The position numbers and the translations under genes were made by a program. A DNA stretch of 64,000 bases from Escherichia phage vB_EcoM_SA35RD, in sequence record OL960577.1, one strand, 5' to 3'. Of the stretch, positions 1 to 57,429 are shown in pieces (positions within the stretch are counted from its first letter, which is position 1; each line of letters begins with the position of its first letter). The notes under the pieces were generated by a model that made no database searches, was not told where the DNA came from, and saw nothing but the letters and a program-made list of their open reading frames with translations.

Positions 1-2214
1 TTATTTGGCTGCTTCCACAGCCTTCATGAATTTAACGATTTGAGCGACTTGTTCTTTAGAAAGAGTACCACGTCGTCCCATGTAGTCTGACACAATATGA
101 TAATTGGTTTCGAATTCAATAACCATTTTATCATCATTATCGTAAGCATTATCTTTAAGCTTATCGAAAATTTTAGCACACAATTCTAACTTCTTATTCA
201 GGTCTGTATTAGTAGCACCTGCGAATCGATTCCATCCCCAACGATTATTTACTGTTGAGAGTTTTGCAAAGTCTTTACTGATTTCTTTGTTCTTAGAGCT
301 AAAATACTTACTAAGGAAGTTAAGCTCTTCATTACGAGTAATATGATTCAAATAAGGCTGTGCTCTACGACTTGGTGATACATACTCATCATAATCCACT
401 TTATCGATTAGCATAATATAGTCATTAATTGATTTTTCGAACAAGCATTCTACTTCACCAAGTTTACGAACTTTCTTAGCAATCTGTGGACGGACTACAG
501 TGAACTCTTTAATACCTGACAAATCAGCAATACGGGTCAAGAAATTGGAGTCATAGTTCAACCAACCTTTATCTGCGTCAAGACATTCAGCATTAGAACG
601 ATTACGAACTATAGCATAACCTTGGATTTCATCAGCTTCACTCGCTGGAATAAAGAGATCTTCTGATACCCAAACATCGTTTTCATTCTTAAAGAACCGA
701 TGAGCACTTGGGGATTTAGGACGAGGCCCATTAGAACGAGTCTTGACTTCAATCCATGGCTTAACGATTTGTAAAAGCTCTGAAGTCTTGTACATGTTAA
801 TGTTGTCGCCATCAAAGATAACTTTAAGGCGTTCAAGAAGTTTCATTGCATCTTCGTCTGTAGGGTCAACGAATAGTACGCTTTTACCAAAACCGCGTGG
901 AACTTTACCAGTTAATTTAACCTCGTCTTTAGACATTTCAATTGAATTAAGAGCTCGCATTAATGGAACGCGTCCCTTAACGTCGTCAATAACAATTTCA
1001 ACATTTTTAATGTTAATGCCAATCAGACTGTTAATTGAAATAGTTGCCGATGAGCTACCACTTTCACGAATACGACGAAGTCGTGGGTCTGAAACGATAT
1101 CATATACAACACCAAGGTTGCACCATTCGGGCCCCATTTTAAAACGTTTGTACAACTCGGAATAAGTTAGTTGTTCTTTAGAGTATTTCAGTGATTCAAT
1201 ATTAGACCCAGCCTTTTCCATGTATTTACGAGCGGTATAACCAAGAGAATCAATTTCACGGAATACATGACGTGGGTATTTACAATCAATCCATTTCTTA
1301 GAATCTTCAGCGAACAATTTAGCATCGATTTCTGCAACACGTTTATGGATATTTGCTACTGTACGTTTATCAAATGACAATGCTTCACGAGACGGGGCTA
1401 CATCTAGTTCACCCATAGGGAATTTAATATAAGCTGTAGTGCATCGCGTCATCATCCATGTTTGTTCTTTAATAACACTTCCGATTGGATATACAATACC
1501 ACCATAAACAGCCATGATATTACCACGTTCACCCCATGGAGCTTCCTTGGCCAAATATACATCGTCAAATTCAGGGAAGTATTTAATATCTTTAACACCA
1601 CGAACTTCTGCGATATCACCTAGAGGACGCATAACATATGCAATTTCGGATGCAAACTTTTCAAAATCTTCCGGGTTAACCGGCACAACTACTTCTACAC
1701 CCGTACGGTCATCAGGGCCCATCTTATCTACAAAGGTTGGCTTAATTTGTGGACCCGTGTCATCTTGGTAGATTACATAACCACGAACTTCGCCGTTGTG
1801 ATAAGACGTAAGGTTAAACGTATCGGTATACGCTAGTGGAGCTTTAGAACCGAGTCCGAATCCACCAATGAAATCGTTACTCGATGTTTTAGTTGAAGCA
1901 AAATATGAATTATAGATTCCTGGCTCTTCGTCATTACCTCGAATGGTGAAATCACTCATACCAGGACCAAAGTCTCGAACTACAAAACGTGGGTCTAAAC
2001 GACCTGGAGCCTGAACAATAAACTTATCAGTGCAACCATTAAGAATTTGACCATCGATACAGTTTGTGATTAATTCACGTACACAAGCCAATTCTTTGTT
2101 TGTATAAAGGTCATTAGACAAAATCTTATAAACTTTGCTATTGCCTTGAATAGTAAATGCTGTGCTCTTACCGCCTGAACCAATAATCGTTTCTTTAGCC
2201 GTTTCAATAATCAT
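1..2214 (-). CDS. rIIA: rIIA membrane-associated protein (GHKL ATPase-like N-terminus)
   Basis: 737 aa ORF; size, position at genome start and T4 synteny (rIIA, rIIA.1, topoisomerase); stop codon at window nt 1-3. Confidence 0.8.
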   Translation of the reverse strand: MIIETAKETIIGSGGKSTAFTIQGNSKVYKILSNDLYTNKELACVRELITNCIDGQILNGCTDKFIVQAPGRLDPRFVVRDFGPGMSDFTIRGNDEEPGIYNSYFASTKTSSNDFIGGFGLGSKAPLAYTDTFNLTSYHNGEVRGYVIYQDDTGPQIKPTFVDKMGPDDRTGVEVVVPVNPEDFEKFASEIAYVMRPLGDIAEVRGVKDIKYFPEFDDVYLAKEAPWGERGNIMAVYGGIVYPIGSVIKEQTWMMTRCTTAYIKFPMGELDVAPSREALSFDKRTVANIHKRVAEIDAKLFAEDSKKWIDCKYPRHVFREIDSLGYTARKYMEKAGSNIESLKYSKEQLTYSELYKRFKMGPEWCNLGVVYDIVSDPRLRRIRESGSSSATISINSLIGINIKNVEIVIDDVKGRVPLMRALNSIEMSKDEVKLTGKVPRGFGKSVLFVDPTDEDAMKLLERLKVIFDGDNINMYKTSELLQIVKPWIEVKTRSNGPRPKSPSAHRFFKNENDVWVSEDLFIPASEADEIQGYAIVRNRSNAECLDADKGWLNYDSNFLTRIADLSGIKEFTVVRPQIAKKVRKLGEVECLFEKSINDYIMLIDKVDYDEYVSPSRRAQPYLNHITRNEELNFLSKYFSSKNKEISKDFAKLSTVNNRWGWNRFAGATNTDLNKKLELCAKIFDKLKDNAYDNDDKMVIEFETNYHIVSDYMGRRGTLSKEQVAQIVKFMKAVEAAK

Positions 2215-15230: not shown

Positions 15231-15238
15231 TATTTATA
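15231..15238 (-). promoter_or_regulatory. T4 late promoter TATAAATA upstream of soc
   Basis: Exact TATAAATA on minus strand ~32 nt upstream of soc ATG. Confidence 0.5.
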
Positions 15239-15240
15239 AC

Positions 15241-15762
15241 TTAATACCCGTTGTCCTGGCGTTCGAAGTTATGTTTATTTTTCAAATAATACAGCTTAAA
15301 GATTTCTTCAGCAGAAAGACCCAGACCTTGGAACATGTTCAGAACGAAATGCAGAATATCAATCATTTCGAATTTAATTTCGAGCTGGTCTTCAGGAGAT
15401 AGTTCATCGATACGACGATTACGATATTCAGCATGTTGGGCCTTCCACGGTTTCCATACAGCAGATGCATCTTTTTCACCATTGCTCATACCACCAAGTG
15501 AAGTCAACAGTTCACGGAATTCATCATCAATATAATCTTTCTGATTACGCAGCCAATCAACAACATCACCAGCAGTAGCCAATTCATCAGGATGTTTGTT
15601 ATGTTCAGGCTTGTCATTTGCCAGACGAACCTGTAAAGATTTCTGCATATCAAGCATTACCTGCAGTGGGTCTTTATCTTCGTGAATCAGAGCATTAAAA
15701 TAAGCTTCTTCTGCTTTATCAACACCAGAAATAAGTTGTGAACATTCGTTAAAGTGTGCCAT
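15241..15762 (-). CDS. 56: dCTP pyrophosphatase gp56 (MazG-like)
   Basis: Start at MAHFNEC after AAGGAAAA SD; size and synteny. Confidence 0.65.
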   Translation of the reverse strand: MAHFNECSQLISGVDKAEEAYFNALIHEDKDPLQVMLDMQKSLQVRLANDKPEHNKHPDELATAGDVVDWLRNQKDYIDDEFRELLTSLGGMSNGEKDASAVWKPWKAQHAEYRNRRIDELSPEDQLEIKFEMIDILHFVLNMFQGLGLSAEEIFKLYYLKNKHNFERQDNGY

Positions 15763-15851
15763 TATTTTTCCTTTCAATTCAGTAATAAGTGAGTTAATTC
15801 TAACATTAATTTTATAAAGCGTAATAAATAATAGGTAACTAAGGAGATATT

Positions 15852-16049
15852 ATGTTTAAACTTCCATCGTTAATCAACGCTATTAAAGGCAATAAAAAGA
15901 AAACTGCTATCGCTGCAATAGTTGTAGGTGGCATTATTTCATGGAACTTCGGGATTGCACCATTGTTAGTTGCCCATGGTATTATAGTTCCTTCTGTTCC
16001 ATTGGATACTGTAGTTGATTTGGCCTTTGCTATTATAGGGCTTGTTTAA
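15852..16049 (+). CDS. hypothetical small membrane protein (plus strand)
   Basis: 65 aa hydrophobic ORF; strong SD AAGGAG 7 nt before ATG; AATAAATA late-promoter-like element upstream; convergent with gene 61. Confidence 0.4.
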   Translation: MFKLPSLINAIKGNKKKTAIAAIVVGGIISWNFGIAPLLVAHGIIVPSVPLDTVVDLAFAIIGLV

Positions 16050-17068
16050 ATCTTCGAATAACGAGATAATCTCATTTTAGCATGCAACCCACTTGAAATA
16101 TTCTGTTTCATATATTCTAAAATTTCTTGTGGTGTTGCATTTTCTTTCATTACCATATCATTCACATCCTTTGAACTCCATGGAGCTCTATCCCAGAACA
16201 TGACACGTTCGCCTGCATCAACTAATCGCTTCATGCGAGCTATAGTATCTGGATGCCTAGGTTCATTATCCATTACCCATACCCGACGTTCTTTAAATGG
16301 TACCACATCTAAATCTATTGAGCCGCCTGTAATAGCGATTGCATTGGGTATGAATAAACTATCAATAGGGCCTTCCATTACCCAGACGTCTCCTTCCTTA
16401 ACACGTTCAACACCATAAATTTTTGTTGCAGACTCAAACGCTTTAATAGTGATATATTTCTGAGGAGCGTCTTTACGAAGTGCACGTCCTTGGAATGACT
16501 CGGCCTTCCCGTCTTTATTAAAAATAGGAATCACTAAACGTGGCTCGGGAATCTCTTTCTTATACGTACCAGGTTGAATCTTGTTGACCAATTTAGGCCA
16601 TTCTAATGTGAACCATAATCTATTCCACGATTCTTTAGGAATACACCGAGACTTAACATATTTCACAATAGGATGCTCTTCAGGCAACTTGTCTAGACGA
16701 GAACAAGACGGCAAAGAATTTATAGTCTTTTTCTCCGGTTCTGGTTTATGTTCAGGAACCTTTTCAATCTTTGGTTCCATTCTAGCTTTTTCTTTACGAA
16801 CTTCCATTAGATATTCGCGATAAAGCTCTTCATCATACTCTTTTAAGTATCCTGAAATTGTATTGTGGTATTGACAGTTATAGCAATGTACATTACCAGG
16901 AGTACCGCCATAATACCATCCGCGAGCTTTCATTGCATCTGTCTGGGAGTCGCCACAAACTGGACATCGAAATGTTAATTTAAATGTACTTGAATTATTG
17001 ATTTGTCTAAAACGAGGTAGGTGAGAAAACGCACGATAAGCAAATTCATTATCTATCCATTCAGCCAT
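16046..17068 (-). CDS. 61: DNA primase gp61
   Basis: 340 aa, zinc finger CPVCGDS...CYNCQYH; T4 synteny. Confidence 0.85.
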   Translation of the reverse strand: MAEWIDNEFAYRAFSHLPRFRQINNSSTFKLTFRCPVCGDSQTDAMKARGWYYGGTPGNVHCYNCQYHNTISGYLKEYDEELYREYLMEVRKEKARMEPKIEKVPEHKPEPEKKTINSLPSCSRLDKLPEEHPIVKYVKSRCIPKESWNRLWFTLEWPKLVNKIQPGTYKKEIPEPRLVIPIFNKDGKAESFQGRALRKDAPQKYITIKAFESATKIYGVERVKEGDVWVMEGPIDSLFIPNAIAITGGSIDLDVVPFKERRVWVMDNEPRHPDTIARMKRLVDAGERVMFWDRAPWSSKDVNDMVMKENATPQEILEYMKQNISSGLHAKMRLSRYSKI

Positions 17069-17602: not shown

Positions 17603-17792
17603 TCACAAAGATCGCTTTATCACCGTTCGCATCTGTGACTTCATATGTAGTGTCTTCATAGTGTGGAATATTCCAAATTACACCATCATTAGCTTTTACG
17701 CTAATATGGCATTGGTGTTTTGAAACAACTTCATAATCTTCAAAACTTGTAAAAACACTAATTTTAGAACCAGTGCAAATTGCAGTAGTCAT
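17595..17792 (-). CDS. hypothetical protein
   Basis: 65 aa ORF between neighbours. Confidence 0.4.
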   Translation of the reverse strand: MTTAICTGSKISVFTSFEDYEVVSKHQCHISVKANDGVIWNIPHYEDTTYEVTDANGDKAIFVID

Positions 17793-17793
17793 T

Positions 17794-18453
17794 TTAACCT
17801 CGATTCATAAATGCATTAAATATTTGGTCATCAACAGAAATTTCTAATTCGACTTCAATTGTTTCAGCCTTTTCTTCAGGTGGTAATTCGTATCCACACA
17901 CTACAATTTTTTCATCGATATCAAAATATACAGAAGCAATACGATTAATGTTACTTTCAGTTAAGTCTAAATCAACATCAACATCTTTTTGACCTACACT
18001 TAAAGGATAACTAATACGAGTTATTTTATTATCTTTAACAAAGAGTCCACCAACATACTCTGTACTACGTTTGAAGTTTACACGTTTCCGAATTGAAAGA
18101 TATGATACATCTTTACCGTGAGCTCGGCTCATAGGACATAATGAATAACTAGAATAAGAGATGTCAAATCCTACGCCTTCAACATGTGCTAGAGTATCAT
18201 GAGTAAACCAATTATAGTCGTATGCTAAATCCATTATATTGTAATATGTGAAAGGCACAGGATTAACATCATATGTTGTACCTTTAAAATCTGCCCAGGC
18301 AACGATTTCGTTATCTTTAACAATTACAAAAATTACACCAATATGGTACCCGTTATTATTTTCATTCGGCGTTATATTATAACATTGTGCATTAGGAAAT
18401 TTACCATATTTAAACGGCGCGTTTTTGTGCATATAATAAATCATATTATTCAC
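17794..18453 (-). CDS. hypothetical protein (61.2 position)
   Basis: 219 aa ORF. Confidence 0.5.
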   Translation of the reverse strand: MNNMIYYMHKNAPFKYGKFPNAQCYNITPNENNNGYHIGVIFVIVKDNEIVAWADFKGTTYDVNPVPFTYYNIMDLAYDYNWFTHDTLAHVEGVGFDISYSSYSLCPMSRAHGKDVSYLSIRKRVNFKRSTEYVGGLFVKDNKITRISYPLSVGQKDVDVDLDLTESNINRIASVYFDIDEKIVVCGYELPPEEKAETIEVELEISVDDQIFNAFMNRG

Positions 18454-19112: not shown

Positions 19113-19481
19113 TTAATTAAATTTGTTTAAACGTTCAATACACTGGACGTAGTTATTTGCGATTTGTTTCTGGGTAGGCTCTTTACCAGTTGTTTCAACA
19201 TAGCGAATGAATGCGATTTCAGTAGCCTGTAAGCAATGTTCTTTAACGCGCTGTTCTTTTGACATAGCTACAGTATCAGAATCACGATAACGTTGAGCAT
19301 GAGCATCAGCTTGAATCATTCGATTACCTACAGTAACCGGGTCTTCCACTTCAACTTTAGGTTGTTCATATTGTTTAACATTCGGATTGTAAATCAGTTG
19401 GCCAACATTATTAGGAATAAAGCCATGGGCACCACATCCGGTTAATCCAAATACCATTGCTAAAGCGATTAATTTTTTCAT
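19113..19481 (-). CDS. putative lipoprotein
   Basis: 122 aa, lipobox LTGC after signal peptide. Confidence 0.5.
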   Translation of the reverse strand: MKKLIALAMVFGLTGCGAHGFIPNNVGQLIYNPNVKQYEQPKVEVEDPVTVGNRMIQADAHAQRYRDSDTVAMSKEQRVKEHCLQATEIAFIRYVETTGKEPTQKQIANNYVQCIERLNKFN

Positions 19482-29366: not shown

Positions 29367-29407
29367 GTTGAAGTCCTCATTGGTAAGTAGATGTATTGTA
29401 CACTATT

Positions 29408-29551
29408 CTAGTTAAAGCATTCATACTTTGCCTGTAGACCAATCATAATCCATCCAATTACAAGTGTTGGAATCATTACTGGAGCCGTTAAGCTCCAGTA
29501 GATAGTCATGACAAGCATTAATAGTAAAAGTCCTATTGTTATTGCTTTCAT
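29408..29551 (-). CDS. small hydrophobic peptide translationally coupled to isomerase gene
   Basis: Hand translation MKAITIGLLLLMLVMTIYWSLTAPVMIPTLVIGWIMIGLQAKYECFN; ATGA overlap with upstream stop. Confidence 0.3.
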   Translation of the reverse strand: MKAITIGLLLLMLVMTIYWSLTAPVMIPTLVIGWIMIGLQAKYECFN

Positions 29552-39576: not shown

Positions 39577-39622
39577 ATTATTTCCTCATTAGTTAATTCA
39601 TTCTATCATCCGTTTATAAAGC

Positions 39623-39648
39623 AAAAAAAGGAACTCCGAAGAGTTCCT
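39623..39648 (-). terminator. intrinsic terminator (UUCG loop + U7)
   Basis: AGGAACTC-CGAA-GAGTTCCT preceded by A7 on plus strand, upstream of gene 47. Confidence 0.55.
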
Positions 39649-39820
39649 ATCCACATAGTACACCGTACAGAGGCTCATTTGAACTTTTAAATCGAATGGG
39701 CTTGTATGTAATAGTTCCTTCGGCTTTAGCTTTATCATAAGACTCTTTAAAACGTCTCATTCTTTCTGCTTTGCCTTTACGGATTTTATCGAAATTTTCA
39801 GAAGTCGGGATGTTCGTCAT
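39647..39820 (-). CDS. small basic protein
   Basis: Hand translation MTNIPTSENFDKIRKGKAERMRRFKESYDKAKAEGTITYKPIRFKSSNEPLYGVLCG; followed by terminator hairpin. Confidence 0.3.
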   Translation of the reverse strand: MTNIPTSENFDKIRKGKAERMRRFKESYDKAKAEGTITYKPIRFKSSNEPLYGVLCG

Positions 39821-39859
39821 GCATAAGCACCTCTCAGAAAATGCCTAAATCAATTTCTC

Positions 39860-47310: not shown

Positions 47311-47339
47311 AATAAACCCTTACCATATATAGATAAGGG

Positions 47340-47347
47340 TATTTATA
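47340..47347 (-). promoter_or_regulatory. T4 late promoter TATAAATA upstream of gene 49
   Basis: Exact TATAAATA on minus strand ~30 nt upstream of gp49 ATG. Confidence 0.45.
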
Positions 47348-47349
47348 AT

Positions 47350-47529
47350 TTAGTAAACGTTATAAAAGTCTCGATGAAAACGTTTATACTGTCGAATCAT
47401 TCTTTTAGTAGGACGTGTTACCGAAATGATTGAAGTCCTCATGTTCGGATTGTTTGGAGCCCCAATCATAATAAATTTCCAGGATTTTTGGCCGTTTGTT
47501 CTTTCGCCATAAAATAGTTCAGTTTTCAT
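47350..47529 (-). CDS. small basic protein, paralog of 47954..48124
   Basis: Hand translation MKTELFYGERTNGQKSWKFIMIGAPNNPNMRTSIISVTRPTKRMIRQYKRFHRDFYNVY. Confidence 0.3.
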   Translation of the reverse strand: MKTELFYGERTNGQKSWKFIMIGAPNNPNMRTSIISVTRPTKRMIRQYKRFHRDFYNVY

Positions 47530-47538
47530 AATAAACCT

Positions 47539-57085: not shown

Positions 57086-57265
57086 TTATTCACCAATTAA
57101 AGTTTCAACAAAATTCACCAAAGCATTCTGGCAAGCATCAACCTGATTTTCGTAAAAGTCTCCGCTATCATTTACCGCATGATAAGCTACATCATTCAAA
57201 TCTGAATCGGCTTCACGTAAGTCACGGATAAGGTCCATCAATTTATTAGCTTGTTCACGGGTCAT
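57086..57265 (-). CDS. hypothetical small acidic protein
   Basis: Hand translation MTREQANKLMDLIRDLREADSDLNDVAYHAVNDSGDFYENQVDACQNALVNFVETLIGE; TAAATG junction with downstream gene. Confidence 0.3.
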   Translation of the reverse strand: MTREQANKLMDLIRDLREADSDLNDVAYHAVNDSGDFYENQVDACQNALVNFVETLIGE

Positions 57266-57429
57266 TTTACCATACTCGTTTCAATAAGATTCACTATGCC
57301 GTTTACCATGTTATAAGTAAACATCGGATAATTGTATTGTACTACAACATAAGCGATAAGCAAAAGTTTCATTTTGTTCTCCATTTGTTTTGGTAGGATT
57401 ACTATATCATAGTCCTACCAAGACGTAAA

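Follow-up and report, generated by a model that had tools for sequence, protein, structure and literature searches.

A conserved gene for a predicted small membrane protein, probably expressed late, lies convergent with the primase gene in T4-type phages

The stretch of DNA analysed here (the window) comprises 64,000 nucleotides of Escherichia phage vB_EcoM_SA35RD (OL960577.1) and is from an RB69-like Mosigvirus genome, of which it forms the left end, on the rIIA side; FP43, JK36 and many other phages show 96-97% identity to a 1.5-kb query around the ORF considered below. This ORF is on the plus strand, between two minus-strand genes, and the locus contains the following features:

15241..15762, minus strand: gene 56, dCTPase, divergent neighbour (phrog_173, E=2.3e-45; annotations; start codon checked)
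15797..15821, minus strand: MotA-type middle-promoter-like site of gene 56 (CGCTTTA at 15821-15815, 12 nt, TAGAAT at 15802-15797)
15823..15830, plus strand: candidate late promoter box of T4 type, AATAAATA variant with A at -13; the ATG follows after 21 nt
15841..15846, plus strand: Shine-Dalgarno sequence AAGGAG, with a 5-nt spacer to the ATG
15852..16049 (including stop), plus strand: CDS for a 65-aa small membrane protein (predicted), RB69ORF029w homologue, phrog_2024, subtype A
16046..16049, both strands: TTAA palindrome common to both convergent stops (ORF TAA at 16047-16049, plus; gene 61 TAA at 16048-16046, minus)
16046..17068, minus strand: gene 61, DNA primase, convergent neighbour (phrog_47, E=3.8e-102; JK36 and RB69 annotation)

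The ORF runs from an ATG at 15852 to a TAA at 16047-16049 and encodes the product MFKLPSLINAIKGNKKKTAIAAIVVGGIISWNFGIAPLLVAHGIIVPSVPLDTVVDLAFAIIGLV. An initial annotation of this DNA had described a hydrophobic 65-aa plus-strand protein whose stop overlaps that of gene 61; both descriptions hold, with a GRAVY of +1.24 for the product and the TTAA at 16046-16049 common to the two stops. The AAGGAG reported ahead of the ATG is also present, but its spacing is 5 nt and not the 7 nt given. The further claim that this is the only convincing plus-strand gene agrees with the annotation of RB69, in which ORF029w is the sole plus-strand CDS within the first 65 kb, and with a scan of the window, in which no further plus-strand ORF with a ribosome-binding site was found in the gaps between minus-strand genes. 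Many plus-strand ORFs of 60-90 aa overlap minus-strand genes in the window, so the length of the ORF is by itself within chance. Rfam and tRNA scans across the whole window returned no matches. Four other stretches of 180-340 nt each lack a minus-strand ORF of at least 60 aa (39577-39859, 57086-57429, 47311-47538, and 29367-29547); these are likewise empty in the Rfam and tRNA scans, and their RB69 counterparts are short annotated ORFs or gaps.

The encoded protein matches the HMM of phrog_2024, a PHROG family with no assigned function, over residues 1-65 of 65 (E=1.9e-27), and differs at one residue from RB69ORF029w, which has the same position and strand. Matches were obtained by tblastn in 691 phage records, and an identical protein occurs on 217 contigs, including many GenBank accessions, labelled 'hypothetical protein' throughout. 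Homologues of 61-74 aa are distributed across at least eight genera of Tevenvirinae and fall into three subtypes (A, B, and C), all of which are full-length phrog_2024 matches (T4, E=4.6e-31; TH41-B, 6e-28; CIP9, 1.7e-15). Subtype B alone is present in Dhakavirus WG01, Klebsiella phage Marfa, Kanagawavirus Q7622, Mosugukvirus PM2, and Gelderlandvirus CGG4-1; subtype C was identified in CIP9 and PEi20, in the latter without annotation. The core W-N-[FL]-x3-P-x5-G-x3-P-x-V aligns without gaps across the three subtypes: W31, N32, P37, P47, and V49 do not vary among 13 sequences, G43 is near-invariant, and the window protein has all six.

Certain genomes encode two members of the family at this locus. 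A second, distantly related plus-strand ORF lies beside the first in ESCO47 (upstream) and in Gaprivervirus TH41 (downstream); in TH41 it is the downstream copy that overlaps the primase stop. The tandem paralogues thus occur in opposite orders, A-B in TH41 (locus piece L005 1501..1907) and B-A in ESCO47 (L008 1305..1698), with an 8-nt overlap between the ESCO47 copies. The B copy of CJ20 is decayed (ATGTGA; L006 1699..1816), and 119 nt separate the remaining ORF from the primase gene. No second copy was detected within the window using the family profile. Frameshifted copies are present in two records, T4_ev240 (L018 610..808) and ERS-1 (L007 about 1490..1694; an unverified record), involving the loss of 1 nt in an A-rich run in one and a shift near codon 48 in the other; these may be sequencing errors, or the gene may be dispensable.

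A profile search of 5.8 billion proteins yielded 56 clusters, the well-assembled ones mostly on phage-genome-sized contigs, and none of the sources of these clusters gives an informative name. A HMMER search with a subtype-A profile recovered only two clusters among 1.84 billion representatives, and there are therefore no remote cellular relatives. By these comparisons, the phrog_2024 family appears to be confined to T-even-type phages of enterobacteria. Scans against Pfam and NCBIfam gave no meaningful match for the window protein, nor did Pfam for 13 family members, among which there were only two chance-level matches at E<=1; a sequence profile search of the PDB gave a single chance match (E=1), and Foldseek against viral models recovered only the protein's own homologues, the remaining matches having E>5. 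The small ORF has been misnamed in several relatives, as 'dCTP pyrophosphatase' in CGG4-1, 'DNA packaging ATPase' in UPEC01 and SAKp28, and 'Holin' in OE5505; annotation faults in relatives involve loci L017 901..1125 and L016 886..1071, and PEi20 omits the small ORF.

The pattern of nucleotide substitution is that of a translated gene. By the Nei-Gojobori method, dN/dS is 0.05 for the comparison with RB69 and 0.10 for that with ESCO47, a more distant Mosigvirus; relative to ESCO47, differences at the three codon positions number 15/3/32, such that 32 of the 50 are at third positions and 3 at second. Relative to T4 and Gaprivervirus, synonymous sites are saturated, and the frame and length (65-66 aa) are retained. 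Judged by these substitutions, the gene is under purifying selection at the protein level. This leaves the reading of the ORF as a chance occurrence, with no gene, as extremely improbable. The ORF is short, and its homologue was left out of the curated T4 and T2 records, both of which would accord with chance; against this, dN/dS is about 0.1, an ORF of 61-74 aa has remained intact over saturated synonymous divergence in at least eight genera, and invariant residues are accompanied by a conserved Shine-Dalgarno sequence and promoter box. We regard the chance-ORF reading as effectively refuted by the comparative data; by sequence comparison, the lone plus-strand ORF is a conserved protein-coding gene of T4-type phages.

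The position of the gene is conserved together with its frame. In all 13 loci compared (the window and 12 others, from at least eight genera), the ORF or tandem pair is on the plus strand beside the 3' end of the primase gene, and the other flank is occupied by gene 56, by dam (T4), or by small inserted ORFs. In 12/13 loci (all but CJ20), the single ORF, or the second member where two are in tandem, overlaps or adjoins the primase stop. The same 4-nt overlap of stops is found in T4, TH41, Marfa, WG01, CIP9, and PEi20; the overlap is longer in Q7622 and PM2, there is instead a 2-nt gap in CGG4-1, and 119 nt separate the ORF from gene 61 in CJ20.

Upstream of the first plus-strand ORF, 12 of the 13 homologous loci carry NATAAATA at a distance of 13-22 nt from the ATG; it is followed by GGAG(G), which is at the same place in all 13. 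The probability that the box would recur in this way by chance is approximately 1e-18 to 1e-21, assuming nine independent lineages and a 15-position window. The ATAAATA heptamer is scarce in the window, with three occurrences on the plus strand and six on the minus strand, compared to about 17 expected per strand from base composition. In the window, AATAAATA is followed downstream by the AT-rich ATAGGTAAC, without a -35 element, which matches the layout of TATAAATA-type late promoters at about -10; the predicted transcription start is at approximately 15836. The canonical TATAAATA occurs four times in the window, in every case on the minus strand (15231, 47340, 55087, and 58742), and the box at 15231-15238 is directly upstream of a soc homologue on that strand. 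Among the small-ORF loci the canonical box was found only in Marfa, Q7622, and CIP9; most loci have A, G, or C in place of T at position -13, and the promoter may for that reason be weak. Among 50 listed T4 late-promoter sites, 32 have a perfect TATAAATA and A at -13 is the commonest variant, with nine sites (PMC2988020). The resemblance to a late promoter noted in the initial annotation is thus well founded, because A at -13 is frequent among T4 late promoters, and it is reinforced by the retention of NATAAATA in 12/13 loci from at least eight genera. In PM2, CIP9, and PEi20, the box is only 13-15 nt from the ATG, and the predicted mRNA would therefore begin at the Shine-Dalgarno sequence. 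From these upstream sequences, we conclude that the gene is probably switched on late in infection.

The intergenic region also includes a candidate signal for the divergent gene. On the minus strand, ttaCGCTTTA-12 nt-TAGAAT (15821-15797) is about 35 nt ahead of the start of gene 56 and has one mismatch to the MotA middle-promoter consensus, (a/t)3TGCTTtA at 12+/-1 bp from TAtaaT (PMC2988021); this fits a putative MotA-dependent middle promoter. The MotA-like site is back to back with the late box, and loci of Gaprivervirus, Dhakavirus, and Mosugukvirus share this layout. The MotA box of Gaprivervirus extends over the two leading bases of the late box, and this overlap would account for a base other than T at -13 in that genus. 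In T4 the gene 56 transcript primes the replication origin oriA and, by analogy, window positions 15797-15821 could mark an equivalent site.

Transcription from the late box would be expected to extend beyond the small gene. Terminator scans of the plus strand 3' of the ORF found no intrinsic-terminator-like site, the nearest weak candidate being at 19131, and the space before gene 61 is too small for a terminator; because no terminator follows and there is no room for one, a late transcript should read on antisense into the primase gene. Early/middle read-through RNA from gene 61 to gene 56 is in turn antisense to the small ORF. [quoted passage not shown] The antisense overlap may result incidentally from tight packing or may contribute to shut-off, and antisense transcription is not the sole function of the locus, because protein-level selection is strong.

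The protein is strongly hydrophobic along its entire length. The AlphaFold2 model, built with eight homologues (mean pLDDT 80), comprises helices at residues 3-11, 15-41, and 51-62, with a loop at 42-50. The net charge is +5 before the long helix and -2 in the C-terminal segment, and this polarity is the same in all subtypes. On the basis of the model, a single-pass membrane protein is predicted with a cytoplasmic N-terminus and an external C-terminus, an orientation that follows from applying the positive-inside rule to the charge pattern; the suggestion that the ORF might encode a membrane peptide is borne out, by prediction, in the 27-residue helix (15-41) with five Lys on its N side and two Asp on its C side. 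The invariant Trp-Asn pair is positioned in the outer half of the predicted transmembrane helix. A conserved polar Asn within a transmembrane helix is a usual sign of helix-helix association, which therefore favours a small modulator that would bind to itself or to another membrane protein.

Several other readings of the locus were weighed against a late-expressed gene for a membrane modulator. One is that the element is chiefly an antisense RNA, with a late promoter that opposes the 61-to-56 read-through mRNA and thereby shuts off the primase and dCTPase messages, the peptide being secondary. This reading would account for the abutted or overlapped primase stop in 12/13 loci irrespective of the other flank (the exception being CJ20) and for the missing plus-strand terminator after the ORF, and it has a precedent in the transcription of both T4 strands at different times at several sites (PMC2988020). 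We nevertheless consider it unlikely: purifying selection on the amino acids is strong where synonymous sites are saturated, the invariant residues and the conserved, strong Shine-Dalgarno sequence indicate that the protein itself is selected, and the arrangement is relaxed in CJ20 (119-nt gap to gene 61) and CGG4-1 (no overlap). Alternatively, the gene could be real but not late, being expressed from another promoter or constantly, with NATAAATA kept for a different reason such as overlap with the gene 56 middle promoter; the box does abut or overlap the MotA-like site in Mosigvirus, Gaprivervirus, Dhakavirus, and Mosugukvirus, which could constrain its sequence. However, the box is also present beside other neighbours and without a divergent promoter in T4 (dam), Marfa, CIP9, PEi20, and Q7622, and a search of the plus strand upstream of the ORF gave no good sigma-70-type promoter, which makes expression of this kind improbable.

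Two further readings concern the protein. A small holin or pinholin-like lysis protein would be in keeping with the small size, the transmembrane helix, and the probable late promoter, and the top Foldseek match in BFVD is a 54%-identical homologue named 'Holin', from phage OE5505. That label is depositor-given and unsupported, and the other named entries listed are 'hypothetical' or 'Uncharacterized', apart from the mislabel 'DNA packaging ATPase'. No Pfam holin family was matched at E<=1 and there was no NCBIfam match, and phrog_2024 is of the PHROG category 'unknown'; the last 22 residues, which follow one long helix (15-41), are hydrophobic and carry a net charge of -2, rather than being highly charged. 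The gene also has no linkage to endolysin or spanin genes, its neighbours being those for dCTPase and primase, and T-even phages already possess the holin T and the antiholins RI and RIII. A lysis function of this kind is accordingly doubtful, and the 'Holin' label was rejected as unsupported, since a family match, a charged C-terminus, and linkage to lysis genes were all found to be absent. It is also conceivable that a Sec signal peptide spanning residues 1-43 is cleaved off and that a hydrophobic peptide of about 22 residues is thereby freed to the periplasm or the outer leaflet. The n-region Lys cluster, the h-region, and Pro37 at about -7 are compatible with such processing, as are the small residues read from the alignment at -3/-1 in all subtypes (A-H-G, i.e., A41-H42-G43; T-Q-G; and S-N-G). 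Nevertheless, the most conserved residues (W31, N32, and P37) would lie inside the signal peptide, which is atypical; with an N-region of 17 residues and a hydrophobic stretch of more than 20, a membrane anchor fits better; and AlphaFold2 gives one continuous helix across 15-41. We regard cleavage as quite improbable.

Taken as a whole, the locus is best explained as a genuine late-expressed gene for a small membrane modulator, RB69ORF029w/phrog_2024, a reading that we hold to be likely. Each element of the interpretation in the initial annotation that computation could address was supported. The reality of the gene, its family, its synteny, and the conservation of its motif come from comparison, and its topology from prediction, so that the evidence is computational throughout. 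Host RNA polymerase with gp55/gp33, activated by the gp45 clamp, would start transcription late in infection at approximately 15836 from the AATAAATA box, producing an mRNA with a leader of about 16 nt that carries the strong Shine-Dalgarno sequence. The product would be a 65-residue inner-membrane protein that crosses the membrane once: its cytoplasmic part would comprise a short amphipathic helix at the N-terminus and a Lys cluster, its transmembrane helix would span approximately residues 15-41, and a short helix at the C-terminus would lie in the periplasm. The core W31-N32, P37, (G43), and P47-x-V49 would span the outer half of the transmembrane segment and the following loop, and the W31-N32...V49 core is a probable site of helix-helix contact, with the protein itself or with another membrane protein. 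From the proposed contact core and the membrane topology, this small protein may therefore modulate, from within the membrane, some envelope event late in infection, such as the timing or inhibition of lysis or the exclusion of superinfecting phage; lysis genes are absent from the neighbourhood of the ORF, and Pfam, NCBIfam, and the PDB tie the protein to no process. The terminator-less transcript would continue antisense into gene 61, probably as a by-product, although it may help to silence leftover early/middle mRNA. Late timing, membrane insertion, binding of a partner, and the antisense effect are all parts of this scheme that we infer.

The gene is already catalogued, the RB69 annotation being two decades old, and the window copy holds nothing new. 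What may be useful is the synthesis of three subtypes at one locked position, with a conserved late box and a defined motif, and the presence of an unannotated homologue in the curated records of T4, which is among the most thoroughly annotated of genomes. The T4 homologue (17738..17938, plus strand, in NC_000866; L002 4739..4939) is intact, encodes 66 aa, and is 54% identical to the window protein; upstream of it are GATAAATA at 17709-17716 and then AAGGAGG. In T4 it is contained in the 309-nt space between dam and gene 61. It is without annotation in the curated T4 records AF158101 and NC_000866 and in the T2 record LC348380, whereas a Pyrodigal-based automated T4 record does call it. The ORF is not mentioned in the literature consulted on the ORF itself, its PHROG family, and T4 antisense transcription or late promoters near gene 61, nor in that on T4 ribosome profiling, omics, CRISPRi-ART, and HIDEN-SEQ. 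Characterising the gene would close a small hole in the T4 map and could reveal a new small late membrane factor. A bolder proposal, to which we give little credence, is that the protein is an overlooked part of late envelope control (a holin/antiholin or exclusion partner) and that its transcript doubles as an antisense switch to remove the mRNA for primase and dCTPase; if true, the classic T4 map would have missed a functional gene, and its position locked to the primase stop would itself be functional. No new kind of system is indicated, and we consider this an ordinary gene and a modest lead.

Compared with known systems, the window ORF is the same gene as RB69ORF029w/phrog_2024, with no difference; this PHROG family is without an assigned function. 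By analogy, Hok/Sok-like type I toxins and regulators of the MgrB/AcrZ class offer a likeness in the hydrophobic product of fewer than 70 aa, basic on its N side, in the opposite-strand transcription, and in the transmembrane Asn; however, no homology was found and no dedicated antisense sRNA gene was identified, and the opposing transcript would be ordinary early/middle mRNA. Within the ORF, the minus strand has a weak sigma-70-like match (9/12) at 15877-15849, with no terminator and no Rfam match. The holins and pinholins (phage 21 S68 and lambda S105) are similarly small, helical, membrane-embedded, and late (the last inferred here), and one homologue is labelled 'Holin'; in contrast to S68 and S105, the window protein has only one clear transmembrane helix, no charged C-terminal tail, no holin profile, and no adjacent lysis genes.

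Further parallels are within the T-even phages. Inner-membrane proteins such as Imm, the RI antiholin, and the partners of holin T are alike in size class, predicted membrane site, restriction to T-even phages, and plausible envelope role, but no sequence or profile similarity was found, and Imm and Sp are early minus-strand genes. RI and T carry a periplasmic globular domain, and the small protein has no such domain. The gp55-dependent late genes of T4 with TATAAATA boxes, such as soc, which is 600 bp away on the opposite strand, resemble the small gene in having an 8-bp box that precedes the ATG by about 20 nt and a strong Shine-Dalgarno sequence. In the family to which the window protein belongs, by comparison, the box starts with A, G, or C in most loci and with T only in Marfa, Q7622, and CIP9, and the small gene stands alone and reversed inside a block of early/middle genes.
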